Positions 7,818 to 55,555 of a DNA stretch of 64,000 nt are shown piece by piece. A program made the position numbers and the translations under genes. The first letter of the stretch is position 1, and each line of letters starts with the position of its first letter. The stretch covers positions 634-64,633 of the forward strand of contig JAWWCA010000001.1 of NCBI GenBank assembly GCA_033720695.1. Reading direction: 5' to 3'. The notes beneath the pieces are model-generated. The model had not been told where the DNA came from and searched no databases. It worked only from the letters and a program-made list of their open reading frames with translations. This stretch comes from Rubricoccaceae bacterium (GTDB taxonomy: Bacteria; Bacteroidota; Rhodothermia; Rhodothermales; Rubricoccaceae).

Positions 7818-8033
7818 ATGACCGACCCGCGCTCCGACTTCCTGGACTTCGGAAGCCCCATCTACCCCTGCCCCACCGAACGGAGGGGCGTCCACGTGCT
7901 CGTCCGCCTCCGGCCCGGGCACTACGCCTGCGAGTCCTGCGGTGAGGTCTTCTCCTGGAAAGAGGACAACGACGGGACCTACCGCCTCGTCCCCGTCGCC
8001 GACAACGGTCGCCCGCCACAGCCCTCCCCCTGA
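7818..8033 (+). CDS. small Cys-containing hypothetical protein
   Basis: Track ORF 7782..8033, with a second ATG at 7818: MTDPRSDFLDFGSPIYPCPTERRGVHVLVRLRPGHYACESCGEVFSWKEDNDGTYRLV. Zinc-ribbon-like C...C-x2-C. Start is uncertain. Confidence 0.4.
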   Translation: MTDPRSDFLDFGSPIYPCPTERRGVHVLVRLRPGHYACESCGEVFSWKEDNDGTYRLVPVADNGRPPQPSP

Positions 8034-10632: not shown

Positions 10633-11079
10633 ATGGATCCCACCGCCGTCCAGCCGACCGCCCGGCCCCGCCACCTCTGGATCGTCGGCGGCCTCTCCCT
10701 GCTCTGGAACGCCTTCGGAGCCGTCGACTACCTCATGACCCAGCTCCAGGTCGAGTCGTACCTGAGCGGCTTCACCCAGGAGCAGCTCGACTACTGGAAC
10801 GGCTTCCCCGCCTGGGTCGATGCCTGCTGGGCCATCGGCGTCTGGGGCAGCGTCCTCGGGTCCGTCGCGCTCCTCCTCCGACAGGCCTGGGCCCAGTGGG
10901 CCTTCGCGCTCTCCCTCGTCGGCCTCGCCGGGTCGTCACTCTACACCTACGGCCTCACCGACGGCCTCCGCATCATGGGCGGCGCGGGACCCGTCGTCTT
11001 CTCCGTCCTCATCTGGGTCGTCGCCATCGCCCTCTTCATCTACGCCCGCGTCATGGCACGCCGCCACGTCCTCCGGTAG
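10633..11079 (+). CDS. integral membrane protein (about 4 TM helices)
   Basis: Track ORF, 148 aa. Hydrophobic segments LWIVGGLSLLWNAFGAV, WAIGVWGSVLGSVALLL, AFALSLVGLAGSSLY, VVFSVLIWVVAIALFIY. Confidence 0.6.
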   Translation: MDPTAVQPTARPRHLWIVGGLSLLWNAFGAVDYLMTQLQVESYLSGFTQEQLDYWNGFPAWVDACWAIGVWGSVLGSVALLLRQAWAQWAFALSLVGLAGSSLYTYGLTDGLRIMGGAGPVVFSVLIWVVAIALFIYARVMARRHVLR

Positions 11080-11599
11080 ACGACCGCCCCCGGGACGACG
11101 ACCGGTACCCCTCGTAGAACGCGCCCACCACCACGGGCACCCCGACCCCGCGCGGCGACGAATCGGCCAGACGCCCCTCCCCACCCGGCGTGCGGGTGAT
11201 CGCCAACGCGTCCACCAGCGACCGACCGTTCGGGGACAGCGTCGCCACCACCAGGACCTCCGAACGCGCCGACGCCTCGCGCTCCGTCGGCGCACGCCCG
11301 CTCCCGTCGTCGAGCACCATCCACGACTCCGCGATCCACGTCAGCGCCAGGACCCGCACCGCCGACGCCCCCAACCGCGACCCGAGGTCCCGAAGCTCCT
11401 CCGCCCGCGTCGCGGGATCCACGGCCGCCCGCAGCTCGAAAACCCGCCCCTTCCGCGACCGGTACGTGACCACCGCCGTCGGCGCCAACGCCGGCCTGGT
11501 GACGTCGTCCGTCTGGAGACGCCCCCACGCCTGCCGCGCCTCGGACACGTGCCGGTCGTGGATCTCCGGGAGCGGGATGGAGCGGCGCGGGGCGCGCAA
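11051..11599 (-). CDS. hypothetical protein, paralogue A of a ruvC-linked pair
   Basis: Track ORF, 182 aa. Shares PEIHDRHVSEARQAW near the N-terminus and GAFYEGYR near the C-terminus with 11674..12111. No family recognised. Confidence 0.5.
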   Translation of the reverse strand: MRAPRRSIPLPEIHDRHVSEARQAWGRLQTDDVTRPALAPTAVVTYRSRKGRVFELRAAVDPATRAEELRDLGSRLGASAVRVLALTWIAESWMVLDDGSGRAPTEREASARSEVLVVATLSPNGRSLVDALAITRTPGGEGRLADSSPRGVGVPVVVGAFYEGYRSSSRGRSSTGGRGGVP

Positions 11600-11673: not shown

Positions 11674-12111
11674 CTATCGGACAACCCGATAGCCCTCGTA
11701 GAACGACTCCAGCACGAAGGGCACCGCGGTGTCCACACGCCGGGTCGCCGCCCCCAGCGCGGCCTCCCCGCCCGTCGACCGCAGCACCGGGACCGTGCCC
11801 ACCAGCGCGTGCCCCGCCGGCCCCGCCGTCACCACCGTCATCACGTCCCGCTCCCCACGCGCCGGTGCCACGCAGCTCACCGCGGCCACGCACGTCCCCT
11901 CCGCCGCCATCGCGCGGCCCAGCGCGCGAAGCTGCGGCCCCCGGCGCGACGGGTCCAGCACCGACACCACCTCCTGCATCCCCGGCGCATCCCGGTACGC
12001 CACGACCGCCAACACCGGACACCGGCCACCGCTGGCCGCCCACGCCTCGCGCGCCACCCCGACGTGCTGGTCGTGCAGCTCGCAGAGCAGCCAACGGTCC
12101 CACCTCCGCAT
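11674..12111 (-). CDS. hypothetical protein, paralogue B of a ruvC-linked pair
   Basis: ATG at 12111 within track ORF 11674..12660: MRRWDRWLLCELHDQHVGVAREAW ... ESFYEGYRVVR. The start lies 2 nt after the ruvC stop. Confidence 0.5.
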   Translation of the reverse strand: MRRWDRWLLCELHDQHVGVAREAWAASGGRCPVLAVVAYRDAPGMQEVVSVLDPSRRGPQLRALGRAMAAEGTCVAAVSCVAPARGERDVMTVVTAGPAGHALVGTVPVLRSTGGEAALGAATRRVDTAVPFVLESFYEGYRVVR

Positions 12112-13166: not shown

Positions 13167-14183
13167 GTGACCAACGACGCCTACGCCGACGTCGACCGCT
13201 TCCGGTTCCACACCCTCCACCCCAACCTCCGCTTCGGAACCGCCAGCGACCGCTACGCCGGATGGATCGGACAGATCTATCCCGAGGACCATTACGCCGA
13301 CCGCGTCAGCTCCCGCAAACGGAAGCTCGGCGGACGCTCCTTCGAGGAGCGGACCGTCCCCGTCGAGTCCACCGCCGACTTCTTCGAACACTTCGGCGTC
13401 GTCGAACTCGACTTCACCTTCTACCGGCCCCTCCTCGACCCCAACGGCGACCCCTCCTCCAACCTCTTCGTCCTCGAACGCTACGCCGAGCACGCCCCCC
13501 CACACGCCCGCTTCCTCCTCAAAGCCCCGCAGGCCTACTCCGCACGCGTCCTGCGGCGCGGCGGCCAGTTCGTCGACAACCCGGACTACCTCGACGCCGA
13601 CGCCTACCGCCGGCGCTTCCTCGAGCCCGCCTCCGACCTCCTCGACGACCGCCTCGTCGGCGTCCTCTTCGAGCAGGAGTACGCCCGCGTCAGCGAGAGC
13701 CCCTCGCCCGACGCCTTCGTCGCCGAGCTCGACGCCTTCTTCGCCGCCGACGGCGACGCCCAGCCCCACCTCGAAATCCGCTCCCCACACCTCCTCACCG
13801 ACCCCTACTTCGCCTGGCTCCACGACCGCGGGCTCGGCCACGTCTTCAGCCACTGGACCTGGCTCCCCTCCATCAAAGAGCAGTGGTTCCGCGCCGGCCA
13901 ACGCTTCTCCGCCGCCAACGGCGAAGCCGTCCTCCGCCTCCTCACCCCGCGAAAGATGCGCTACGCCGACGCCTACGCCGAAGCCTACCCCTTCGACCGG
14001 CCCGTCCCCTCGCTCAGCGAGACGCCGGGCGCCCGCACCATGATCGAGGAGTCCGTCGCCCTCGCCGTCAAAGCCATCGAGGCCGGCGCCACCCTCAACG
14101 TCATCGCCAACAACCGCGCCTACGGCAACGCCCCGGCCCTCAACCAGGCCATCGCCTTCCGCTACCTCGAGCACCAGCGCTAA
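13167..14183 (+). CDS. DUF72 (UPF0759) family protein
   Basis: Track ORF, 338 aa, GTG start 1 nt after the previous stop. FGTASDRYAGWIGQIYPEDHY ... FFEHFGVVELDFTFY is typical of DUF72. Confidence 0.85.
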   Translation: MTNDAYADVDRFRFHTLHPNLRFGTASDRYAGWIGQIYPEDHYADRVSSRKRKLGGRSFEERTVPVESTADFFEHFGVVELDFTFYRPLLDPNGDPSSNLFVLERYAEHAPPHARFLLKAPQAYSARVLRRGGQFVDNPDYLDADAYRRRFLEPASDLLDDRLVGVLFEQEYARVSESPSPDAFVAELDAFFAADGDAQPHLEIRSPHLLTDPYFAWLHDRGLGHVFSHWTWLPSIKEQWFRAGQRFSAANGEAVLRLLTPRKMRYADAYAEAYPFDRPVPSLSETPGARTMIEESVALAVKAIEAGATLNVIANNRAYGNAPALNQAIAFRYLEHQR

Positions 14184-15694
14184 GACGCCAGGTCCGAGCC
14201 CAGCGGCACCCACGCCACCACCGCCGACGCCGGCAGCCGCTCCCCGGACGCCGCCTCCCAGTGCGCCTCCGGCGTCGCAAAAAACGTCAGCACCGGACGC
14301 TCGAACCCGCCCTCCAGCACGGCCCGCACCACCGTCCCCGGCGCCGGGACCTCGTCCGACGTGTAGCGCCAGCCCCGCCACGGACCCACAGGCTCGGGCA
14401 CCTCCCCTCCACGGGGCGCCACCCCCGCGTCCTCGATCACCGGGAGATACCGGCACGCGCATCCACCCGCCTCACACGAGGCGTGCGGCAGAGGGCCCGA
14501 CGACAGCGCCTCCAGCACCGTCATCGTCGACCCCGCCGACGCGGTGCAGTCCGGACACACCCCGCCCCCCGGGCACACCACGCGCACGCGCGCAACGCGG
14601 GCCTTCTGAAGCTGCTGGAGGTGCTGCGCATGCGCCTCACGCGACACGAAGTCCCCCGGCGGCACCACCGGATCCTCCGACCCCGGAGCCGCCGACCCCG
14701 CAGCCGCCTCCGACTCCGAACCGTGAAGCGGACCGAACCGGTCCGACACGCTCATCACGCCGCGAGCCGTCAGCACCACGTGGTGGTTCACCAATGCGGT
14801 GTACAGCGCCTCCGCCGTCCCCGCCTCGGCGTCCCACTCCGACAGCGCGCGGTCGCCCGCCGAGAACGACGCCCCGGCGTACAGCGGATCCGACACCAGC
14901 GACGACGCGACCGCGCCGGCCTCGACGCCCTCACCGACCGGAACCACGCGCCACTCGGTCGCGCCCGTGTACAGCGCCGCCGCCCCAGGTCGCGGCACGG
15001 CCCCGTCTCCGAAATCGACCGCCAGATCGTGCTCCGCCGCACACAGCGCCATCGTGCGCCAGTGCGCACGGTCCAAACGGGGAATCTCCCGCCGCCCGTC
15101 CTCCGGCACCCGCACCGCTCGATACACCGCCACGACCGACGCAAACTGCTCGCCCGACGGGATCCGCACGAGGCGCCGACAGAACGTCGCCGCCGCCTCC
15201 CGCGTGATCGGGCCCGGCCCCACGTCCACCAGCAGGTGGAAGCGACCCGCCGAGCGACCGCCGTACGCCATCGCCGTCAGGATCTGGCGGTACACCCGCT
15301 CCCACCCGTCACGGACCGGGTCCACCCGCAACCCCAACGGCACCCGCAAGACGTCGCGCACCTCCTCGATCGTCGCGCCGTCCTCCTCCGCGTGCACCAC
15401 CGGGACGAGCGTCAGCGCCGGCGACGTCTGCTCCAGCGTCGACGCATACGCCTTCGCCAGCGACACGTGGTCGCCCGCCACCGCCGCCGTCGAGTCGAAG
15501 TAGACCGGCATCCCCGGCGGGACCCCCTCGCGCAGCAACGCCGCCGCCGCCAACAAACCCGTCGACCCCACCCCCGACTGCGGCTGGCGCACCAGCAGCG
15601 GCACGACCGACGCCGCCACTCCGGGAGGCACCTGTCGCAGCGCCGACAGGGAGGCGGCGTCCAACGGGAGCGTCGGGACGTACCGCCACCGCAT
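14180..15694 (-). CDS. T4 beta-protein-family domain fused to a C-terminal MuF/gp7-like Cys module
   Basis: ATG at 15694 within track ORF 14180..15796: MRWRYVPTLPLDAASLSALRQVPPGVAASVVPLLV ... VDFGDGAV ... YAGASFSAGDRAL (beta-protein layout from memory). Then ARVARVRVVCPGGGVCPDCTASAGSTMTVLEALSSGPLPHASCEAGGCACRYLPVI (about 14432-14644). Confidence 0.65.
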   Translation of the reverse strand: MRWRYVPTLPLDAASLSALRQVPPGVAASVVPLLVRQPQSGVGSTGLLAAAALLREGVPPGMPVYFDSTAAVAGDHVSLAKAYASTLEQTSPALTLVPVVHAEEDGATIEEVRDVLRVPLGLRVDPVRDGWERVYRQILTAMAYGGRSAGRFHLLVDVGPGPITREAAATFCRRLVRIPSGEQFASVVAVYRAVRVPEDGRREIPRLDRAHWRTMALCAAEHDLAVDFGDGAVPRPGAAALYTGATEWRVVPVGEGVEAGAVASSLVSDPLYAGASFSAGDRALSEWDAEAGTAEALYTALVNHHVVLTARGVMSVSDRFGPLHGSESEAAAGSAAPGSEDPVVPPGDFVSREAHAQHLQQLQKARVARVRVVCPGGGVCPDCTASAGSTMTVLEALSSGPLPHASCEAGGCACRYLPVIEDAGVAPRGGEVPEPVGPWRGWRYTSDEVPAPGTVVRAVLEGGFERPVLTFFATPEAHWEAASGERLPASAVVAWVPLGSDLAS

Positions 15695-15731
15695 CACCAC
15701 CCCGCACTCCCGCGACCACCCCGCGCTCCCC

Positions 15732-16136
15732 TCACGCGCGAAGCTGTCCCGCGCGCTCGGCGCCCAGCGAGCGCGACCGCCGCAGCCGACCCCCACCCGA
15801 CGACGCCCCGTCCGCGCGCTTCGGCGGCTGCATGAACGACGCCACGTCGATCCGCTCGTCCCCCCGCCCCCAGAACCGGGCGAAGTCGCGCCCGTCGTCG
15901 GGGCCCGTCGGGCGGATCCGCGGACCCGGGTCGCCCGAGATCACCGGCAGGTAGCAACACTCGCAACCCCGCCGCCGCGGAAGAAGACCGCGACGGGCCG
16001 CCTCCGTCAACCGCTCCTCGCGGGGCCCCCCACCCTCCGGCGGGCACACCGGGCACCGACGCGCCGCGATGCGAACCCGCTCCACACGCGCCTGGTGGTA
16101 CAATCGGAGCTGTTTCGCAGCAGCGCGCGCGTCCAT
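15732..16136 (-). CDS. small protein that is a free-standing copy of the MuF/gp7-like Cys module
   Basis: Track ORF 15732..16184, ATG at 16136: MDARAAAKQLRLYHQARVERVRIAARRCPVCPPEGGGPREERLTEAARRGLLPRRRGCECCYLPVISGD... Lies 37 nt upstream of the beta-protein fusion gene on the same strand. Confidence 0.5.
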   Translation of the reverse strand: MDARAAAKQLRLYHQARVERVRIAARRCPVCPPEGGGPREERLTEAARRGLLPRRRGCECCYLPVISGDPGPRIRPTGPDDGRDFARFWGRGDERIDVASFMQPPKRADGASSGGGRLRRSRSLGAERAGQLRA

Positions 16137-16250
16137 GCGGGTGGGGAAGAGGGCGGCCCGGAAGTCTACCACCGCCCCGCGCATCGCCGCCAGACCAGCG
16201 CCCGAATTCGCACCGCCGCATGTCAGCTCTCACACGGTCCACCCGCCACC

Positions 16251-16658
16251 TCACCAAGCCCCGAGGATCGCTCCGACCACCGTGAGCAACAGCGTCATGT
16301 ACCCCGCGTCGATCAACCACAGCTGCACCGACTGCTGCTGGTACAGGTAGTTCATCCCCAGCATCGTCGACACCAGGCCCGCCCCCAGCACCAACCCCAC
16401 CACCGCGCCCCCCACCGCGCCCGACGACGGACCGATCACAAGCGCCAGAACGACCGTGGCAATGAAGATCAGCACGAACGCCCCCGCGAAGATCAACGCC
16501 ATGTTCGCGCCCTCAACGTCCGCGTCCGACAGCCCGACCTCGCGCTGCCAGGCCTTCCCGAACAACGGCCCGTACCACACCGCACCGAGGCCAAACGCCC
16601 CCAGCGCAGCAATCAGGACGGCGAGGTAGTTGACATCCGCGGGCGAGCCCAAGTCCAT
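16251..16658 (-). CDS. DUF1761 membrane protein
   Basis: Track ORF, 135 aa: NYLAVLIAALGAFGLGAVWYGPLFGKAWQREVGL ... Typical DUF1761 start and four hydrophobic helices. Confidence 0.8.
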   Translation of the reverse strand: MDLGSPADVNYLAVLIAALGAFGLGAVWYGPLFGKAWQREVGLSDADVEGANMALIFAGAFVLIFIATVVLALVIGPSSGAVGGAVVGLVLGAGLVSTMLGMNYLYQQQSVQLWLIDAGYMTLLLTVVGAILGAW

Positions 16659-16694: not shown

Positions 16695-16728
16695 CAGAAA
16701 TCAGAAAACTCCTGATGCGCCCATCAGG
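16695..16728 (-). terminator. rho-independent terminator after the yceH-like gene
   Basis: On the minus strand: CCTGATG-GGCG-CATCAGG followed by AGTTTTCTGATTTCT, which is one of the few T-rich tracts in the window. Lies 14 nt past the stop at 16742. Confidence 0.6.
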
Positions 16729-16741
16729 GCTCGCACGCCCT

Positions 16742-17211
16742 TCACTCGAACGCGCGCCGAAACGCCTCGAACGCCGCTCGCAACGACGCCACGTCACGCT
16801 CTAGGGCCTCGACCCGCGACCCCACACCGCCCCCACCGACTCGAACGCGTGGAGCCGCACCGATCGGGTCCGGATCTCCCCGGCCGTCTGCGGCCCCCGC
16901 AGCAGCAACGCCGCCACCGCGGCGACGCCCGGAGAGCCGAGCCCATACCGGGTCGGGAGCGTGTGGCGGTAGCGCTCCACCCGAGACCCCGACCCCGACG
17001 TCGTCCCCGCCAACGACCGCCGGCGCAGCGCCTCCAGCGCCTCCAGCACCTCTCCCTCCCCGACGGCCATCACGGGCTCGCGGCCCGTCCGCTGGCAGCA
17101 CGCCCCAACGAGGGCGTTCAGCGACAACGGATACTGACCGGGCGTCGCCAGCGACTTCTCCGCGAGCGCGCCCAGCACGCGAACCGCCACAGGGGAAAGG
17201 GGCTGCTCCAT
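16742..17211 (-). pseudogene. yceH: yceH (DUF480)-like gene, internally shortened and split over two frames
   Basis: Frame A (16801..17211): MEQPLSPVAVRVLGALAEKSLATPGQYPLSLNALVGACCQRTGREPVM... matches the YceH N-terminus and ends ...RLHAFESVGAVWGRGSRP*. Frame B continues to 16742 with SRVEALERDVASLRAAFEAFRRAFE, the typical YceH C-terminal coil, and keeps high third-position GC. About 55 aa of the second winged-helix region seem absent compared with E. coli YceH as I remember it. Confidence 0.45.
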
Positions 17212-17538
17212 GGCCCAAAATACCCGGGTGACACACCACGCGTCACGCCCACCCCGGCATCCTCCGGCCCGATGCCGCCTCGCGCCATGTCCCCATCCGT
17301 CCTCGGACTGCTCGTCCGGTGCCCTCTCGGCTCAGCCCGGCTGCTGTACCCCCGCTTCGTCTGTCGGTACCACCCCGACCTCCAGCGCGGATCGGCACGC
17401 CCGACGGCCACGGCCATCCTCGTGTTCAGCCTCAACTAACCCGGGCCGCCTCCGGGGGCGCGGACCCGAAAGTCGCGCGCTGTGTCGTAGCATAGGGCGC
17501 CCGATCGCTGACAGAGGCGAGGGCGCTCCGACCGCTTC

Positions 17539-40588: not shown

Positions 40589-43500
40589 ATGTTCGTCCAC
40601 CTCCACGCCCGGAGCTGGTTCTCCTTCCGAGCCGGTGGCTCCTCCCCTGAGGCGATCGCTCGCGCCGCCGCCGCCGCCGGGCAACCCGCCGTCGCGCTCA
40701 CCGACCGCCACGGCGTCTACGGGGCCGTCCGCTTCGCCAAGGCCTGCCTCGACGCCGGCGTCCGACCCCTGTACGGCGCCGAGGTCGTCGTCGACGGGCA
40801 CGCCCTCATCCTCCTCGCCGGCTCGAACGACGGCTACGAGCACCTCTGCCACCTCCTCACGCGCGGACAACTCCGCAGCCGCGAGGCCCCCGCCGTCACC
40901 CTCGACGAGCTCGCGCACGACGCCCACGACCTCTGGTGCCTCACCGGCACCGATGACAGCCGGCTCTGGGACCTCCTCGACCACGACCGACCCCGCGATG
41001 CCCTCCACTGGGCCGGAACCCTCCACGACATCTTCGGGCCGCGCCTCAGCGTCGAGCTCGCCCATCGCCTCGTCCCAGGCGACGACCGCCGGATCACCCG
41101 CCTCCTCCGCCTCGCGCAGCAGGCCAACCTCCCCACCGTCGCCACCAACGACGTCCGCCATGCCTCCCGCGAGGACTACTGGCGGTACGACCTCCTCTCG
41201 TGCATCCGAGAGGGCCTCTCCGTCTTCGAACCCCACCCGGCCCGACCCACCAACGCCGAGCGATTCCTCGCCGACGAGACCACCCTCCGCCGACGCCTCC
41301 CGCTCCCCGCAGCCCTCGCACGCGCCTGCGAGATCGCCGACGCCTGCCACGTCCAGCTGATTACCGGGGAGGTCACCCCACCCGCCGCGCGCCTGCCCCC
41401 CGAGACCGACGCCGCGACCCACCTCCGAACCCTGTGCGAACGCGGCCTCGCACAACGGTACGGGGAACCGCCGCCCGGCCGCGCTCGCGAACAGCTCGAG
41501 CACGAGCTCGCCGTCATCACCGGGCACGACCTCGACGAATACTTCCTCGTCGTCCACGAGGTCACCGCCGAGGCCCGCCGACGAGGCATCCGGTGCGCCG
41601 GGCGCGGCAGCGCCGCCAACTCCATCGTCGCCTACCTCCTCGGCATCACCAACGTCGACCCCCTCGCCCACCGCCTCCTCTTCGAACGCTTCCTCCACCG
41701 CGGGCGCGCCTCCACCCCGGACATCGACGTCGACTTCGACGCCGAACGACGGGAGGAGATCATCGACTGGATCGAGCAACGCTTCGGCATCTCGCAGACC
41801 GCCATGACCGCCACCGTCATCACCTACCGCCTCCGCAGCGCCCTCCGCGACGCGGCCAAGGCGCTCGGATGGCCCATGGACATCGTCAACCGCCTCGGAA
41901 AAGCGGTCCCCCACGCCCACGCCGCTGCCGCCCCCGAGCACCGCGTCGCCGTCGAGCAGGTGGTCGGACCCTCGCCGCTCGCCGAGCGCCTGCTACAAGC
42001 CGCCGCCGGCCTGGAAGGGTGCCCCCGACACCTCGGCCAGCACTCCGGTGGCATGGTCCTCTCCCGCACCCCCCTCCGCGCCTTCACCCCCGTCCAGGTC
42101 AGCGCCAATGGCGTCAAGGTCGTCCAGTTCGACAAGGACGACGTCGAGGCCCTCGGACTCGTCAAGCTCGACGTCCTCGCCCTCCGCATGCTCGCCACCG
42201 TCAGCGAGGCGGCCGAGCTCGTCGAACGACACGAAGGCGTCCGCCTCGACCTCGACGCCCTCCCCCTCGACGACACCCGGACCTTCAACCTCATCCGCGC
42301 CGGCCGAACCCTCGGCTGCTTCCAGATCGAGAGCCAGGGCCAGCTCCACCTCCTCGCCCAGGCACAGCCCGAATCCTTCGATGACCTGATCACGGAGATC
42401 GCGCTGTTCCGGCCCGGCCCCCTCCAGGGCAACATGGTCCACCCCTTCGTCCAGCGCCGACGAGGCAACGAGCCCGTCGCCTACGACGACCCCTCCCTCG
42501 AACCCGTCCTCCGCGACACCTACGGCGTCATCCTCTTCCAGGAGCAGGTGCTCGAGGTCGCCCACGCCTTCGCCGGAATGCCCCTCGAAGAGGCCGACGC
42601 CTTCCGGCGCCTCATGAGCAAGTTCCGAAGCTCCGACGAGATGGAGAGCATGCGCGGCCGGTTCGTCGCCGGCGCCGTCGGGCGGGGCGTCCCGGAGCCC
42701 GTCGCGCAGTCGGTCTTCGACCGCGTGTCGAAGTTCGTCGGCTACGGCTTCTGCCGCTCGCACGCCGCCGCCTTCGCGCAAACCGTCTACCAGTCCTGCT
42801 ACCTCAAGGCCCACCACCCCGCCGCGTTCATGGCCGCCGTCATGCAGCACCGGCCTGGGATGTACAGCCTGATGACGCTCCAGGAGGAGGCCCGCCGGTG
42901 CGGCGTCCAAACCCATCCCCCGGACCTCGCCCGCAGCGGGCCGCGCTACGACCTCGAGCCCCATCCCCGTGGCTGGGCCATCCGCATGCCCCTCGCCGCC
43001 GTCCGCGGACTCGACGCCGAGGACGCCCTCGCCCTCGTGTGGGAGCGCCTCCGCCGCCCCTTCGCCGACCTCGAGGACCTCTGGCGACGCGCGCCGCTCG
43101 GCGCCGCGAAGCTCGAATCTCTCGCCCAGAGCGGCGCCCTCGACTCGCTCGCAGCATCCAGCCGTGACGCGCTCTGGACCCTCGGCGTCCTCGCTCGACG
43201 CCTCGGGCCTCCTGGACAAGCCACCGCCCCCACCCTCTTCTCGGCCCCCGTCGTCGATGCGCTCGACGTACCCGACCTCCCACCCCTCACGGAGGCCGAG
43301 AGGCTGAGCTGGGACCTCGAAACGCACGGGGCTGCCCGGTACCACCCAGTCCGCCTCGTCCGGCGCCAGCTCACCGAGCTCGAAATCCGACCCATCGCCA
43401 CCACCCTCCCCCTCGGCCGCCTCGGCCACCCCAACGCCCACCCCCGCCTCCGCGTCGCCGGCATCGTCATGCTTCGCCAGCGACCACCGACCGCCAAGGG

Positions 43501-43786
43501 GGTCATGTTCCTCACGCTCGAAGACGAGACCGGCTTCGTCCAGTGCGTCGTCCGGCCCGAGGTCCTCGAACGCCTCGACTGGGTGCTCCGCCAGGGGGCC
43601 CTCATCGTCGAGGGCCGCCTACACAGCACCGGGAATTGGCGCGGCCTCGTGCTCACCGATGCGTGGCCCCTCCACGGCATCTTCGGCGGCTACAGTGGCC
43701 ACCCCGACTGGGCCGGCGGCCGCGACACGCTCATCACGGCGCCGGACGCGGACCCTACGCCACCGCCGGAGGCCGTGCCGGCGTGA
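40589..43786 (+). CDS. dnaE2: error-prone DNA polymerase DnaE2 (ImuC)
   Basis: Track ORF, 1065 aa. PHP start MFVHLHARSWFSFRAGGSSPEAI...ALTDRHGVYG. Pol III alpha core (FLVVHEV..., GRGSAANSIVAYLLGIT, PDIDVDF). Length and context are typical of DnaE2. Confidence 0.93.
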   Translation: MFVHLHARSWFSFRAGGSSPEAIARAAAAAGQPAVALTDRHGVYGAVRFAKACLDAGVRPLYGAEVVVDGHALILLAGSNDGYEHLCHLLTRGQLRSREAPAVTLDELAHDAHDLWCLTGTDDSRLWDLLDHDRPRDALHWAGTLHDIFGPRLSVELAHRLVPGDDRRITRLLRLAQQANLPTVATNDVRHASREDYWRYDLLSCIREGLSVFEPHPARPTNAERFLADETTLRRRLPLPAALARACEIADACHVQLITGEVTPPAARLPPETDAATHLRTLCERGLAQRYGEPPPGRAREQLEHELAVITGHDLDEYFLVVHEVTAEARRRGIRCAGRGSAANSIVAYLLGITNVDPLAHRLLFERFLHRGRASTPDIDVDFDAERREEIIDWIEQRFGISQTAMTATVITYRLRSALRDAAKALGWPMDIVNRLGKAVPHAHAAAAPEHRVAVEQVVGPSPLAERLLQAAAGLEGCPRHLGQHSGGMVLSRTPLRAFTPVQVSANGVKVVQFDKDDVEALGLVKLDVLALRMLATVSEAAELVERHEGVRLDLDALPLDDTRTFNLIRAGRTLGCFQIESQGQLHLLAQAQPESFDDLITEIALFRPGPLQGNMVHPFVQRRRGNEPVAYDDPSLEPVLRDTYGVILFQEQVLEVAHAFAGMPLEEADAFRRLMSKFRSSDEMESMRGRFVAGAVGRGVPEPVAQSVFDRVSKFVGYGFCRSHAAAFAQTVYQSCYLKAHHPAAFMAAVMQHRPGMYSLMTLQEEARRCGVQTHPPDLARSGPRYDLEPHPRGWAIRMPLAAVRGLDAEDALALVWERLRRPFADLEDLWRRAPLGAAKLESLAQSGALDSLAASSRDALWTLGVLARRLGPPGQATAPTLFSAPVVDALDVPDLPPLTEAERLSWDLETHGAARYHPVRLVRRQLTELEIRPIATTLPLGRLGHPNAHPRLRVAGIVMLRQRPPTAKGVMFLTLEDETGFVQCVVRPEVLERLDWVLRQGALIVEGRLHSTGNWRGLVLTDAWPLHGIFGGYSGHPDWAGGRDTLITAPDADPTPPPEAVPA

Positions 43787-51389: not shown

Positions 51390-52202
51390 GTGCCCACCAA
51401 CGCCGACGTCGCCTCCCACCTCCGCGCCATCGCCGCGGCCCTCGAGCGCGAGGGCGCCAACCCCTACCGCATCGAGGCCTACCGGCGCGCGGCCGATGCG
51501 GTGGCGTCGCACCCCGACGCGATCGCCGCCATCGTCGCGCGCAACAAGGACGACCTCGTCGACCTGCCCGGCATCGGCAACGCGCTCGCCGCGGTGATCA
51601 TCGAGGTCGTCGAAACGGGAACGTCCACCACCCTCGATGGGCTCCAGGACCCCGACCGCGCCGTCCGCGCCCTCGCGTCCATCCCCGCCCTCGGACCCGT
51701 CCGCGCGAACCGCATTCACAAGACGCTTGGGGTCGACTCCCTCGACGACCTCGCCGCCGCTGCCGAGGATGGACGACTCCAGACCGTCCCCGGCATCGGG
51801 CCCGTCCTCGCCGCCCGCGTCGCCGACGCCGTCGGCGCCCGCACGGACCGCGCCGACCGTCCAACGGTGGCTGAGCTTCTTGACGTCGACGCCGAATACC
51901 GAACCCGGGCAGAAGCGGGGGACCTCCGACGCATCGCCCCGAAAGCCCACAACCCGACGGGGGAGGCGTGGCTCCCCATCCTCCACACCGCGCGGGGACC
52001 AAGGCGCTACACCGCCCTCTTCTCTAACACCGCGCGCGCGCACGAGCTGGACAAGACGCGCGACTGGGTCGTGATCTACCTCGACGACCCCGACCGCGAC
52101 GCGCAATGGACCGTCGTGACGGGTGCGAGCGGCGCACTCGCCGGACGCCGCGTCGTACGGGGCCGAGAAGGGGAGACGCGCGCGCACCTCGCGGAGGCGT
52201 AG
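51390..52202 (+). CDS. PolX N-terminal-like helix-hairpin-helix protein lacking the polymerase palm
   Basis: Track ORF, 270 aa. NADVASHLRAIAAALEREGANPYRIEAYRRAA and two HhH motifs (LPGIGNALA, VPGIGPVLA) parallel the PolX N-terminus at 31637. The C-terminus is an unrelated ~90-aa domain (RIAPKAHNPTGEAWLPILHTARGPRRYTALFSNTARAHELDKTRDWVVIY). Confidence 0.72.
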   Translation: MPTNADVASHLRAIAAALEREGANPYRIEAYRRAADAVASHPDAIAAIVARNKDDLVDLPGIGNALAAVIIEVVETGTSTTLDGLQDPDRAVRALASIPALGPVRANRIHKTLGVDSLDDLAAAAEDGRLQTVPGIGPVLAARVADAVGARTDRADRPTVAELLDVDAEYRTRAEAGDLRRIAPKAHNPTGEAWLPILHTARGPRRYTALFSNTARAHELDKTRDWVVIYLDDPDRDAQWTVVTGASGALAGRRVVRGREGETRAHLAEA

Positions 52203-52236: not shown

Positions 52237-52485
52237 TCACGAGTCGTCGCCGCCCATGACGATCGTCGTCCGGCGCTCTCCCCCTGCCACGTAGGTGCAA
52301 ACGCACCCGGGGCCGTGCGGCAAGGGAGACGCCGCGAGCGCCTCGTCCACACGAAGGCGCATCCCGATCGCCGCGGCGCACGCAGCCGGTGGGTCCGGCA
52401 CCTCCACCGCAGCGACCACCTCGACCGTCTTGACGCCCCGCCGACGGAGGCCGTCCAGGAGCAACCGATGGCTCGACCGCTTCAT
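52237..52485 (-). CDS. small protein, third and degenerate copy of the MuF/gp7-like module
   Basis: ATG at 52485 within track ORF 52237..52986: MKRSSHRLLLDGLRRRGVKTVEVVAAVEVPDPPAACAAAIGMRLRVDEALAASPLPHGPGCVCTYVAG... Aligns with the modules at 14432-14644 and 15732..16136, but the first CxxC is replaced by AAC. Confidence 0.4.
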   Translation of the reverse strand: MKRSSHRLLLDGLRRRGVKTVEVVAAVEVPDPPAACAAAIGMRLRVDEALAASPLPHGPGCVCTYVAGGERRTTIVMGGDDS

Positions 52486-52498
52486 AGGCGCAGCCCCC

Positions 52499-52873
52499 TC
52501 ATGACGACCCGGGCGCATACGTCCCGAAGCTCCACTCGTACCCCTCCACATCCCGGGCACGGTACCGCCGCGTCCCGAACGGGGTGTCTTCCGGTGGATA
52601 CACGATGTCGGCCCCCGCCGACCGGGCGCGTTCGTGGTGGGCGTCCACGTCCTCGACCACGAGGTAGACGCCGGGACCCGCCGGCTGCCCGGCCGGCCGA
52701 TGGTCCACCTGCCCAAGCATGATGTAGGCGCCGCGGTGCCGCATCTCAGCGTGGACCACCACGCCGTCCTCGTCTGGCACCACGACGGTCGGCTCCAGAC
52801 CAAACGCTGACTCCAGCCATGCCACGGCCGTGGCGGCGTCCACGTACGAGAAATAGGGAACGATCGAGGCCAT
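52499..52873 (-). CDS. VOC family protein
   Basis: ATG at 52873 within track ORF 52499..53104: MASIVPYFSYVDAATAVAWLESAFG ... YRARDVEGYEWSFGTY. Confidence 0.85.
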   Translation of the reverse strand: MASIVPYFSYVDAATAVAWLESAFGLEPTVVVPDEDGVVVHAEMRHRGAYIMLGQVDHRPAGQPAGPGVYLVVEDVDAHHERARSAGADIVYPPEDTPFGTRRYRARDVEGYEWSFGTYAPGSS

Positions 52874-52998
52874 CGCGGTTGGGCGGAGGAACAGCCCCAA
52901 TCTACCGATCTCGAGCCCACCGTACCGCAAGGGGAGGGGAGAGGCCGGCGAGGCCGTACCGCCCGCCACCCCATCGGCCGCCGCACGCGCGACCTCGT

Positions 52999-53823
52999 CT
53001 ACGCGCCCCCGGCCTCTGGTGCAGAGCGCGCGGCTGGAGCCAGGTGGTCCACGGCCACGACGAGACCACCGCCGCGCGCGAGGCCGGCCGACACGCTCCG
53101 CCACCGCGCGGCCTCACGCGCATGACGGGCGGACGCGCCTGGGGCGATCCCGGCCAGCCGATCCGCTTCCCACGCATGGTGTCGTTCGTAGGCCGCTGCG
53201 ACCAGGGCGTCGTCGAGCGGCTCGAAGCCACGCACATCGTGCCACGCCACAGACACGTGATTGGCGAGGACCGAGCCGCTGTAGACCGCCACCCGACCGG
53301 CCGACGAGAAGGCGGCCAGGGCGGCGCTCAGGAGCGCGCTGGCCACGCCGCGGCGGCGCCACGCCGGCACCACGCCGAGGGCATCAACCACGGGCCCCGA
53401 CGACGGCCCCTCGCGCACCAGAAGCACTCCCACGAGCGCGCCGCCCGGGGCCACCGCGACGCGGGTGGCCGGGAGGACCGCACCCCGGGCGCTGCGCAGG
53501 AACGCTGCCGCAAACGCCGCGAGCTCCCCCTGCCGCTCGGCGCGCGGCCAGCCATAGTAGTCGACGCTGTCTGCGAAGGCGCTCTGCAGGGTGGCCGTGA
53601 TCGACGCGCCCTCTCCAGCCTGCATCGGGCGCACCTCGCGGCCGGGGCAGGGGACCCCAACCTGGAAGGGGCCGGTCGACCGGCGAACCGTGCGGACGAT
53701 GGGGGCGGGCCGCACCCGAAACGCTCCGTCGACAAGCTCGTAACGCCACGGAAGCGCTCGGAATTCGTCCCGCTCCAGACACCGGCCCTGGCAGGGGCGG
53801 GGATCGAACACGGGCCGCACCAT
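52999..53823 (-). CDS. GNAT-family N-acetyltransferase (start uncertain)
   Basis: Track ORF, 274 aa: ...GALVGVLLVRE...VDALGVVPAWRRRGVASALLSAAL (acetyl-CoA binding motif). Confidence 0.7.
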   Translation of the reverse strand: MVRPVFDPRPCQGRCLERDEFRALPWRYELVDGAFRVRPAPIVRTVRRSTGPFQVGVPCPGREVRPMQAGEGASITATLQSAFADSVDYYGWPRAERQGELAAFAAAFLRSARGAVLPATRVAVAPGGALVGVLLVREGPSSGPVVDALGVVPAWRRRGVASALLSAALAAFSSAGRVAVYSGSVLANHVSVAWHDVRGFEPLDDALVAAAYERHHAWEADRLAGIAPGASARHAREAARWRSVSAGLARGGGLVVAVDHLAPAARSAPEAGGA

Positions 53824-54490: not shown

Positions 54491-55555
54491 ATGGATCCCC
54501 TCCTCTCCGTCGACCCCTGCGGCCTCTACTGCGCAGCGGGCGACTTCCACGTCGACCCCTGGCGACCCGTCCCGCGCGCCGTCGTCACCCATGCCCACGG
54601 CGACCACCTCACCCGTGGCTGCGGCCGATACCTCGTCGCCCACGACGGCCGAACCGTCACGGCCGTCCGCCTCGGCAGCGACGCCCGCATCCAGACGGCG
54701 CCGTACGGCGAGACGCTCTCGATCAACGGCGTCACCGTCTCCCTCCACCCGGCCGGTCACATCCTCGGATCGGCCCAGGTCCGCATCGAGCACGCGGGCC
54801 ACGTCGCCGTCGTCACCGGCGACTTCAAGGCCGCGCCCGGCGCCACCGCGGCCGCCTTCGAGCCCGTCCCCTGCCACACGCTCGTCCCCGAGAGCACCTT
54901 CGCGCTCCCCATCTACCGCTGGCCCGACGAAGCCCTCGTCGCCGCCGACATCGCGGCGTGGTGGGACGACGCACGCCAGCGCGGTCGCACCGCCGTCCTC
55001 TTCGCCTATGCCCTCGGCAAAGCCCAGCGCCTCCTCGCCCTCCTCCCCGACCCTCTCCCGGGGCCCGTCTTCACCCACGGCGCCGTCGAACGACTCACCG
55101 AGGCCTACCGCCACGCCGGCGTCCATCTCCCGCGCACGCACCATGCCTCGTCCTACCGCGCCGACAACCCCGACCACGCCGGCGCGCTCGTCGTCGCTCC
55201 GCCGTCGACCCGCGCCTCGCCCTGGCTCCGTCGGTTCGGGGACGTGACCACCGCCTTCGCCAGCGGATGGATGCGCGTCCGCGGAACCCGCCGACGACGC
55301 GCCGTCGACCGGGGCTTCGTGCTCTCCGACCACGCCGACTGGCCCGGACTCCTCCGCGCCATCGAGGCCACCGGCGCCGAACGCGTGCTCCCGACCCACG
55401 GTTACACCGAGGTCCTCGCACGGTGGTGCCGCGAGTGCGGCCTCGACGCCGAACCGCTCCCAACGGCCTATGCCGCCACCCTCGACGACGAGGAGGCCAC
55501 CCCCACCCTCGACGACGAGGCCCACGACACCGGCGACGACGAGGCCACACCGTGA
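54491..55555 (+). CDS. ligase-associated DNA damage response exonuclease (metallo-beta-lactamase fold)
   Basis: Track ORF, 354 aa: AVVTHAHGDHL (HxHxDH) ... LHPAGHILGSAQ ... VVTGDFK. First gene of the ligase-associated cluster. Confidence 0.88.
   Translation: MDPLLSVDPCGLYCAAGDFHVDPWRPVPRAVVTHAHGDHLTRGCGRYLVAHDGRTVTAVRLGSDARIQTAPYGETLSINGVTVSLHPAGHILGSAQVRIEHAGHVAVVTGDFKAAPGATAAAFEPVPCHTLVPESTFALPIYRWPDEALVAADIAAWWDDARQRGRTAVLFAYALGKAQRLLALLPDPLPGPVFTHGAVERLTEAYRHAGVHLPRTHHASSYRADNPDHAGALVVAPPSTRASPWLRRFGDVTTAFASGWMRVRGTRRRRAVDRGFVLSDHADWPGLLRAIEATGAERVLPTHGYTEVLARWCRECGLDAEPLPTAYAATLDDEEATPTLDDEAHDTGDDEATP

Follow-up and report, generated by a model that had tools for sequence, protein, structure and literature searches.

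We analyzed a 64,000-nucleotide (nt) stretch of DNA (contig JAWWCA010000001.1, approximately 72% GC; hereafter, the window) from a metagenome-assembled genome (MAG) of the Rubricoccaceae (Rhodothermales, Rhodothermota). An earlier note, made from the letters of this DNA, had drawn attention to two co-oriented minus-strand genes lying 37 nt apart, measured from the stop codon of the small gene to the ATG of the large one; the two genes are arranged as described, and all of the peptides quoted in that note are present. In the large gene, a domain of the P4 beta family is joined by a linker to a cysteine (Cys) module that resembles the C-terminal half of the MuF/gp7 domain of phage head proteins. 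The small gene, directly upstream, encodes a free paralogue of the same module. The two genes consist of the following parts.

14180-15694, minus strand: large gene, 504 amino acids (aa) plus stop from ATG 15694 (538 aa from GTG 15796), in the order Beta domain, linker, MuF-like Cys module, tail
14774-15682, minus strand: Beta_protein domain (PF14350, P4 beta family), residues 5 to 307 of the large protein (Pfam, E = 8.7e-14)
14660-14773, minus strand: linker rich in Gly, Ser, Ala, and Glu, residues 308 to 345 of the large protein, with low predicted local distance difference test (pLDDT) scores and no family match
14420-14659, minus strand: five-Cys module copy 1, residues 346 to 425 of the large protein, CPDC ... 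PLPHASC ... CAC-RYLPV (profile match, family alignment)
14183-14419, minus strand: C-terminal tail of the large protein, residues 426 to 504 (approximately 80 residues), with AlphaFold2 (AF2) pLDDT of 37 to 65 and two short strands
15695-15731, minus strand: 37-nt spacer between the open reading frames (ORFs), in which the GC content at third codon positions (GC3) of the large frame is still 0.95
15732-16184, minus strand: small gene, 150 aa plus stop from ATG 16184 (134 aa from ATG 16136)
15921-16151, minus strand: Cys module copy 2, residues 12 to 88 of the small protein, CPVC ... LLPRRRG-CEC-CYLPV (BLASTP, profile, alignment)
15735-15920, minus strand: low-complexity tail of the small protein, residues 89 to 150 (approximately 62 residues), with GC3 of 0.92

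Both frames look coding. The GC content at the first, second, and third codon positions of the large ORF is 0.76, 0.56, and 0.90, and GC3 of the small ORF is 0.86; these third-position values are the coding signature of the genome. Public collections hold both products as separate proteins, the large one as an identical 504-aa protein at NCBI and the small one as a 150-aa protein in a representative library. The small gene had been described as essentially a free copy of the module, 134 aa in length. The module is there, and 134 aa is the length from ATG 16136, but the ORF extends to 150 aa from ATG 16184, carries a tail of approximately 62 residues, and lacks the third Cys of the family. Given its GC3 of 0.92, this tail is read as coding; it is similar to nothing, either in BLASTP against the large protein or in Pfam to an E value of 10. 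The small protein as a whole has no match in Pfam (to the same limit), NCBIfam, PADLOC, or PHROG. Similarly, the tail of the large protein has no match in Pfam (to E = 10) or PHROG and no homologue that we could find. The structure of both tails is predicted with low confidence. The anatomy of the locus is solid, while its function is something that we infer.

The match of the large protein to Beta_protein scores 52.2 bits, compared to a gathering cutoff of 27, and covers positions 1 to 338 of the 342 in the Pfam profile. Its assignment to a "phage T4 beta-protein family" was correct as to the family, but the prototype of that family is the beta protein of satellite phage P4 (NC_001609), not a T4 protein; P4 beta matches the full Beta_protein profile at 4.3e-56 (191 bits). 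With 15 to 20% identity to P4 beta and the plasmid betas, the large protein is a distant member. It keeps the residues that are invariant in a six-sequence alignment (Y5, P32, P63, D67, P98, R123, S148, D157, P197, D230, W248, and H305), and of the motifs tested it keeps PFILD, IPVVQ, AxRV, LIDxG, YGD, W, and RVNxH, with SFPS degenerate. In addition, residues 262 to 324 give a weak, partial match to PADLOC PD-Lambda-2_C (E = 0.0021). We modeled the Beta domain with AF2 from a shallow, manually checked alignment of 13 rows. The model is poor (mean pLDDT of 49); strand and helix elements alternate in it, and its leading Foldseek matches in the PDB are all TIM barrels, that is, (beta/alpha)8 folds (E = 4e-4 to 2e-2). 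As predicted from this model, the fold of the Beta domain is probably a (beta/alpha)8 barrel.

The Cys module occurs in both proteins. BLASTP aligns residues 353 to 420 of the large protein with residues 20 to 82 of the small protein at 34% identity (E = 3e-5), and copies 1 and 2 are 43% identical across 56 aligned core columns. An echo of this similarity is visible in the DNA at the CxCxYLPV codons, where 37 nt are 73% identical (14428 to 14464 and 15932 to 15968). Certain foreign members of the family reach 46% and 44% core identity to the window copies. Because this equals or exceeds the similarity of the two copies to one another, sequence comparison indicates that they are family-level paralogues with no recent duplication between them.

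A two-sequence profile, searched exhaustively against 1.84 billion representative proteins, returned 42 proteins at E ≤ 1e-3. The module they share is approximately 65 residues long, and in most members, which are 74 to 230 aa in length, it lies at the extreme C terminus. The 39-sequence alignment gives the pattern CxxC ... P(L/I)P-x3-C ... CxC-x-Y-x-P, with Cys columns 1 to 5 conserved in 37, 39, 36, 39, and 39 of the 39 sequences, respectively. The Cys pattern read from the window is thus conserved in the homologues (36 to 39 of 39), but the His of its "P-H" motif, found in only 16 of the 39, is not. A family model that contains neither window sequence scores them at 77.7 and 41.6 bits, corresponding to E values of 5e-17 and 9e-6 when scaled to 1.84e9 proteins. 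The structure predictions proposed in the earlier note gave a mixed outcome: modeled by AF2 with the family alignment, the module reaches a pLDDT of 89 to 97, but the Beta domain stays at 49. The family HMM (hidden Markov model), applied to the six-frame translation of the window, detects one more copy.

52237-52485, minus strand: third, free module copy, 82 aa

This copy scores 33.5 to 34.4 bits (34 bits with the family HMM and 33.5 bits with the window-free model), and it lacks the first and third Cys of the family, as does a metagenomic relative (P0030). It lies downstream of a GNAT-like ORF (52999 to 53823, recognized by eye from the sequence) and a VOC/glyoxalase-like ORF (52499 to 53104), and it is convergent with the gene for a PolX-N-like helix-hairpin-helix (HhH) protein (51390 to 52202). 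The third copy brings the number of module paralogues to three within 64 kb, and therefore the module family has expanded in this genome. The free mini-MuF proteins of 74 to 230 aa found elsewhere have the module at the extreme C terminus, with the Cys columns of the family, and the small protein and the third copy are ordinary members of that family.

The note had compared the module with MuF and SPP1 gp7 and had proposed searches with the Pfam Beta_protein and Phage_Mu_F models. These returned the Beta_protein match given above (E = 8.7e-14) but no match to Phage_Mu_F (PF04233) for either window module, even at an E value of 10. When the 40 members of the alignment (38 relatives and the two window sequences) were considered together, 23 matched Phage_Mu_F at E ≤ 1, with a best value of 6.3e-9. 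Eight relatives were also scanned singly; six of them match, all below the 29.6-bit gathering cutoff (16.9 to 24.1 bits), and the matches start at approximately position 56 to 65 in five cases and at 21 in one, ending at 110 to 111 of 112. With hhalign, the 39-sequence family aligned to Mu gp30, SPP1 gp7, and a viral MuF protein with a probability of 95.8% (E = 7.6e-9) over 52 C-terminal columns. The C-terminal region of the large protein also has a weak match (E = 0.04) near the C terminus of a PHROG family annotated "portal protein." When the module model was searched with Foldseek against BFVD, the top ranks were held by phage head morphogenesis domain, minor capsid, and GpF-like proteins, with probabilities of approximately 1.0 and root mean square deviations of 1.7 to 3 Å over approximately 70 columns; the E values were 4e-3 to 0.3, none reaching 1e-3, and the same model found nothing in a fold search of the PDB.

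The module aligns to the C-terminal 55 or so positions of MuF, including the (C/R)xx(C/H)...G...CRC motif, and the N-terminal half of that domain is absent. Where the module family has CxxC, the Mu and SPP1 proteins have RxxH, and the gap between them is closed by a genuine 328-aa viral MuF protein that carries CxxC. The link to MuF is transitive, because the window copies miss the Pfam model while their relatives match it. We conclude with high confidence that the module and the C-terminal half of the MuF/gp7 domain are homologous, the module descending from that half or together with it. The proposed resemblance is therefore borne out by hhalign and by 23 of the 40 alignment members, with the BFVD ranks pointing the same way, but it extends to the C-terminal half only and escapes Pfam in the window copies themselves. 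As a MuF head protein the module fails: it is below the Pfam threshold, and, unlike MuF, SPP1 gp7, and Mu gp30, it is a five-Cys variant of half a domain with no portal or terminase context. By comparison, muf genes have a portal or terminase gene nearby in 85 to 87% of cases, and MuF gp7 binds the portal protein (PMC5576092); an entry in the reference list of the same paper cites SPP1 gp7 as a DNA-binding protein.

Relatives of the large protein were sought in several collections. A word-index protein search returned only the protein itself, tblastn against plasmids and phages returned none, and neither did scans of genome contigs and metagenome contigs; a look-up of the exact sequence had no entry. 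No second Beta-module fusion and no second pair of these genes appeared in any collection searched; co-location of the two genes in other genomes, which had been offered as a check, was never found. NCBIfam has no match for the pair, and sequence searches of the PDB with the large protein and with the Beta and module profiles were all negative. For the module, the word-index search with its alignment gave 6 hits only, and an alignment of the closest trio found nothing in metagenome or viral contigs. Among the relatives and contexts examined, which do not include the neighbor gene on the P0030 contig, no Beta gene is fused or adjacent to a foreign module. The architecture of a Beta domain with half a MuF domain, the pairing with a free module, and the free half-MuF Cys family have no description in the libraries or literature searched.

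Other module genes have housekeeping neighbors, occur on a plasmid-like contig with ParA, a resolvase, and a restriction-modification system, or have helix-turn-helix (HTH)/XRE neighbors. Some relatives bear an N-terminal zinc ribbon, SAP, or TerB_N domain, and a TerB_N-module fusion adjoins UvrD/PD-(D/E)xK genes. The closest relative of the small protein (43% core identity), on a 1,380-bp contig (P0030, Logan SRR14699981), is also without the third Cys, and approximately 300 nt downstream of its gene a second, truncated one encodes at least 158 aa. On a 45.8-kb IMG/VR contig (L070, 4873 to 6213, plus strand), a 446-aa viral protein combines an N-terminal zinc ribbon and a SAP-like segment with the C-terminal module; its gene is just upstream of genes for a lipoprotein and a 1,222-aa tape-measure-like protein, not beside a portal gene. 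We also observed a conserved mini-cluster in metagenome contigs (L013, 4847 to 7707, and L014) that consists of an HTH_31 regulator, a 151-aa protein, a 104-aa module protein, and a convergent gene for a 386-aa protein. It is present on two longer contigs from different samples, and a 1.3-kb fragment has the 151-aa and module genes only.

We examined the genes around the cassette. Those that flank it directly, together with the likely upstream boundary, are as follows.

16251-16658, minus strand: DUF1761 membrane protein (Pfam, 1e-23), co-oriented, 66 nt upstream of the small gene
16711-16728, minus strand: terminator-like hairpin and adjoining T-run that close the upstream DUF480 gene; the unit probably has its upstream boundary here
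13167-14183, plus strand: DUF72 gene (Pfam, 9.9e-16), convergent, with its 3' end reaching 4 nt into the large gene

Upstream of DUF1761 lie the sole AT-rich patch and the terminator-like hairpin, and the transcription unit probably runs from DUF1761, as its first gene, through the small gene to the large gene. On the other side, a conserved DUF72-Beta pair can be ruled out: none of 49 DUF72 orthologue loci in Rhodothermales has a beta gene, a module gene, or any other neighbor from the window. Because no neighbors are shared in these loci, the adjacency of DUF72 and the large gene is not conserved, and the region is without synteny. A scan of 28 neighboring genes identified RuvC, a photolyase-related DPRP, UDG and DUF4130, Ku, LigD, PolX, a Y-family polymerase, and DinB_2, in addition to several glyoxalase/bleomycin-resistance proteins; it identified no portal, terminase, or capsid gene. 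The flanking genes had been named correctly as DUF72 and DUF1761, but they belong to a dense DNA-repair region and not to a set of unrelated housekeeping genes. The repair-rich stretch spans approximately positions 8,000 to 57,000 of the window and also includes DUF72 and a DnaE-type polymerase III alpha subunit (40589 to 43786). Further along the window are the PolX-N-like protein and an ORF with a metallo-beta-lactamase (MBL) fold (54491 to 55555) that by eye resembles a ligase-associated exonuclease.

The boundary between the two genes could be read differently, on account of one feature.

15790-15796, minus strand: G5 run (15790 to 15794) overlapping an alternative GTG start (15794 to 15796, first base 15796; sequence, sliding GC3)

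In sliding windows, GC3 of the small frame is approximately 1.0 down to about position 15,800 and then falls, while GC3 of the large frame is already 0.90 to 1.0 from a point near 15,795 that precedes ATG 15694 by roughly 100 nt. The frame with a coding-like composition therefore switches at the G5 run, and no stop codon interrupts the large frame as far back as 15940. These observations, together with an apparent frameshift at a G-run in the neighboring DUF480 gene, would fit a single ORF of approximately 665 aa (module, linker, Beta, module, tail) that has been split by a 1-nt indel at the G5 run, either through an assembly error or through mutation. They would also fit a start of the large gene at GTG 15796, with a 65-nt overlap between the two genes. 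We consider either variant rather unlikely. P4 and plasmid betas start at a Y-x-P-x-L strand, to which ATG 15694 corresponds exactly (profile position 1 is residue 5), the upstream extension has an atypical GC content at second codon positions (0.76), and NCBI annotates two intact genes. Furthermore, the GC3 windows comprise just 20 codons in a stretch of 73% GC, and the frame-switch signal may therefore be due to chance. A split gene would be compatible with either a conflict or a repair function, and under every reading of the boundary a Beta domain remains associated with two MuF-like modules.

The earlier note had remarked that beta homologues occur in small, sporadic cassettes suspected of a part in defense, and this agrees with P4, the plasmid loci, and PD-lambda-2. 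The gop-beta-cII locus of P4 protects E. coli from lambda and P1 and is thought to act as a toxin-antitoxin (TA)-like abortive infection system (PMC9122126); an accessory gene of a phage sets off its toxicity (bioRxiv 10.1101/2023.04.06.535777). The window locus resembles gop-beta-cII in that the first 310 or so residues of the large protein belong to the same Pfam family with the invariant residues kept, a small co-oriented gene is located directly upstream of beta, and a convergent gene is located at the beta 3' end. In four plasmid loci (L007 to L010), a convergent cII/sce7726 gene overlaps the 3' end of beta, by 4 nt in three of them and by 38 nt in L008, and in P4 the convergent cII begins 27 nt beyond beta. 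The co-oriented gene upstream of beta is variable, encoding Gop or proteins of 160, 341, or 352 aa depending on the locus, and mobile or TA-like genes surround P4 beta and the four plasmid betas. The window differs from gop-beta-cII in having DUF72 in the position of cII, in the additional C-terminal MuF-like module and tail, and in its location outside any P4-like satellite or mobile element. The small gene is not a Gop in disguise, since P4 Gop is a coiled-coil protein with two transmembrane segments and no Cys module and the small protein is soluble and Cys-rich. Nor is DUF72 a disguised cII/sce7726 protein, given that it has no NCBIfam sce7726 match. The cII proteins themselves contain ADLA...FEIKSD, a motif of the D...E-x-K type that hints at a PD-(D/E)xK nuclease fold.

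PD-lambda-2 comprises a HigB-like A component, an Xre-peptidase B component, and a beta-like C component; the last, described as "related to a P4 phage antitoxin," is indispensable for defense (PMC9519451). The window shares with it the beta-like component, with the weak match to PD-Lambda-2_C, but there is no HigB-like or Xre-peptidase partner among the window neighbors, and the small protein matches nothing in PADLOC. MuF polymorphic toxins and polyvalent proteins are similar to the large protein in that a MuF-type domain is fused with an enzyme-like domain. However, those proteins have a full-length N-terminal MuF domain, a C-terminal toxin as cargo, and a place in a packaging module, whereas here a half-domain follows the Beta domain in a chromosomal, nonphage setting.

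Taken as a description, we hold with high confidence that the locus represents a lineage-specific P4 beta-family cassette, in which a probable TIM barrel is followed by a flexible linker, a MuF-half module, and a tail, with a paralogue of the module encoded upstream. As to function, we tentatively suggest, by analogy with characterized systems and knowing that the suggestion may well be wrong, that this is an accessory cassette of the conflict type, anti-phage or similar to abortive infection. As in P4 gop-beta-cII and PD-lambda-2, the conserved core would be formed by the Beta domain, and the MuF-like modules would serve as zinc-stabilized interaction or sensor domains that link this core to a ligand, which could be DNA or a phage packaging protein; we propose these two because SPP1 gp7 binds portal and DNA. 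The free module protein might then act as a regulator of the fused one, either through direct binding or through competition for their common ligand. Zinc binding, the ligand, the interplay of the modules, and the role in defense are all things that we infer.

Several lines of reasoning lead us toward a conflict-type cassette. The only experimentally characterized Beta proteins act in abortive-infection defense, and Beta genes are typically carried on mobile DNA, where the partner gene upstream of them varies. In addition, the cassette is strictly lineage specific, and its module comes from a phage protein family of which the one studied member binds the portal and DNA. Consistent with this, some free module genes lie beside HTH/XRE genes or on a plasmid-like or viral contig. 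A number of observations weigh on the other side. PADLOC gave no significant system match for either protein, a five-sequence cII HMM found nothing in the six-frame window, and both Gop-like and cII/sce7726 genes are absent. The cassette sits amid DNA-repair genes with no clear defense island; no integrase, transposase, tRNA, or flanking or long repeat was seen at it, and its GC content matches the surroundings with no shift in composition. The contexts of foreign module genes are heterogeneous, the structural model of the Beta domain is of low confidence, and the fusion is a singleton, so that no comparative support exists for Beta and the module being functionally linked.

Given the surroundings, the main competing explanation is a role linked to DNA damage or repair, with the Beta barrel as a DNA-directed enzyme or sensor and the modules as small zinc DNA-binding domains, possibly acting with DUF72. 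A repair supercluster surrounds the cassette, the third module copy follows GNAT-like and VOC-type genes and is convergent with the PolX-N-like HhH gene, and relatives of the module are fused to SAP or adjoin UvrD/PD-(D/E)xK genes; the citation of SPP1 gp7 as a DNA-binding protein would suit such a role. The overlap of DUF72 with the 3' end of the large gene also resembles the cII-beta overlap in the four plasmid loci. On the other hand, the 49 Rhodothermales DUF72 loci never have a beta or module neighbor, no LexA-type box is present upstream (LexA and Cheo boxes were both looked for upstream of the cassette, and neither was found), and we know of no Beta-family member that acts in repair. 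The argument from location is weakened further because any gene inserted into a repair-rich window would have such neighbors. On balance, we regard a repair role as doubtful, though it deserves to be taken seriously.

It is also conceivable that the cassette is a decaying or neutral remnant of trapped phage or mobile-element DNA, being a singleton without conserved partners whose modules are too divergent for Pfam and whose small copy has lost one Cys. Decay sits poorly, however, with long, intact ORFs of host-like codon bias that retain all of the Beta invariant residues and four to five of the module Cys, with three module paralogues kept within 64 kb, and with the lack of phage structural or integrase genes nearby; we consider a remnant improbable. 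That the genes are true MuF head-morphogenesis genes of a prophage is highly improbable. The similarity of the module to MuF is the sole support for this idea, and it is effectively refuted by the gene context: no portal, terminase, or capsid gene is found among the 28 neighbors, compared to the 85 to 87% of muf genes that have a portal or terminase gene nearby (PMC5576092), and the domain is a C-terminal half only. A further reading has in our view little probability: the modules, derived from MuF, would be pieces of a phage head protein that the host has domesticated. They would recognize phage packaging machinery (the portal) or incoming or damaged DNA and so switch the Beta TIM barrel on or off, with the free paralogue as a decoy or inhibitor. 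If true, this would be a defense or damage-sensing system in which phage is detected with a piece of a phage, and it would offer the first mechanistic handle on proteins of the P4 beta family.

The Beta and MuF families were already known; their joining is new and rests on one MAG, with no comparative support. With a real anatomy but a conjectural function, the locus is a lead rather than a discovery. Two experimentally validated anti-phage systems depend on the P4 beta family, the biochemical role of which is unknown. The fusion to a recognizable interaction module, with a free paralogue nearby, hints at the coupling partner of the Beta domain, and the cassette is a compact construct for experiments. 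In addition, the small, nonvirion half-MuF Cys modules form a family that Pfam does not model separately, and all three copies in this genome lie among DNA-repair genes. If these modules bind DNA or portal proteins, this would also be relevant to the function, still unknown, of MuF domains, which are widespread.

Outside the cassette, three further features of the window were observed. The DUF480 (YceH-like) gene upstream of the hairpin (16742 to 17239, minus strand) looks frameshifted at a G-run at approximately 16,811 to 16,825: its 136-aa ORF ends at 16801, and the coiled coil expected at the C terminus (SRVEALERDVASLRAAFEAFRRAFE) lies in a different frame, which suggests an assembly indel error or a pseudogene. 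One of the 28 ORFs scanned between positions 699 and 33,334 matches the PADLOC candidate family PDC-S10 at 1.6e-59. Finally, two adjacent ORFs on the minus strand (11051 to 11599 and approximately 11,674 to 12,100) are paralogous, with similar C-terminal halves that end in ...FYEGYR.

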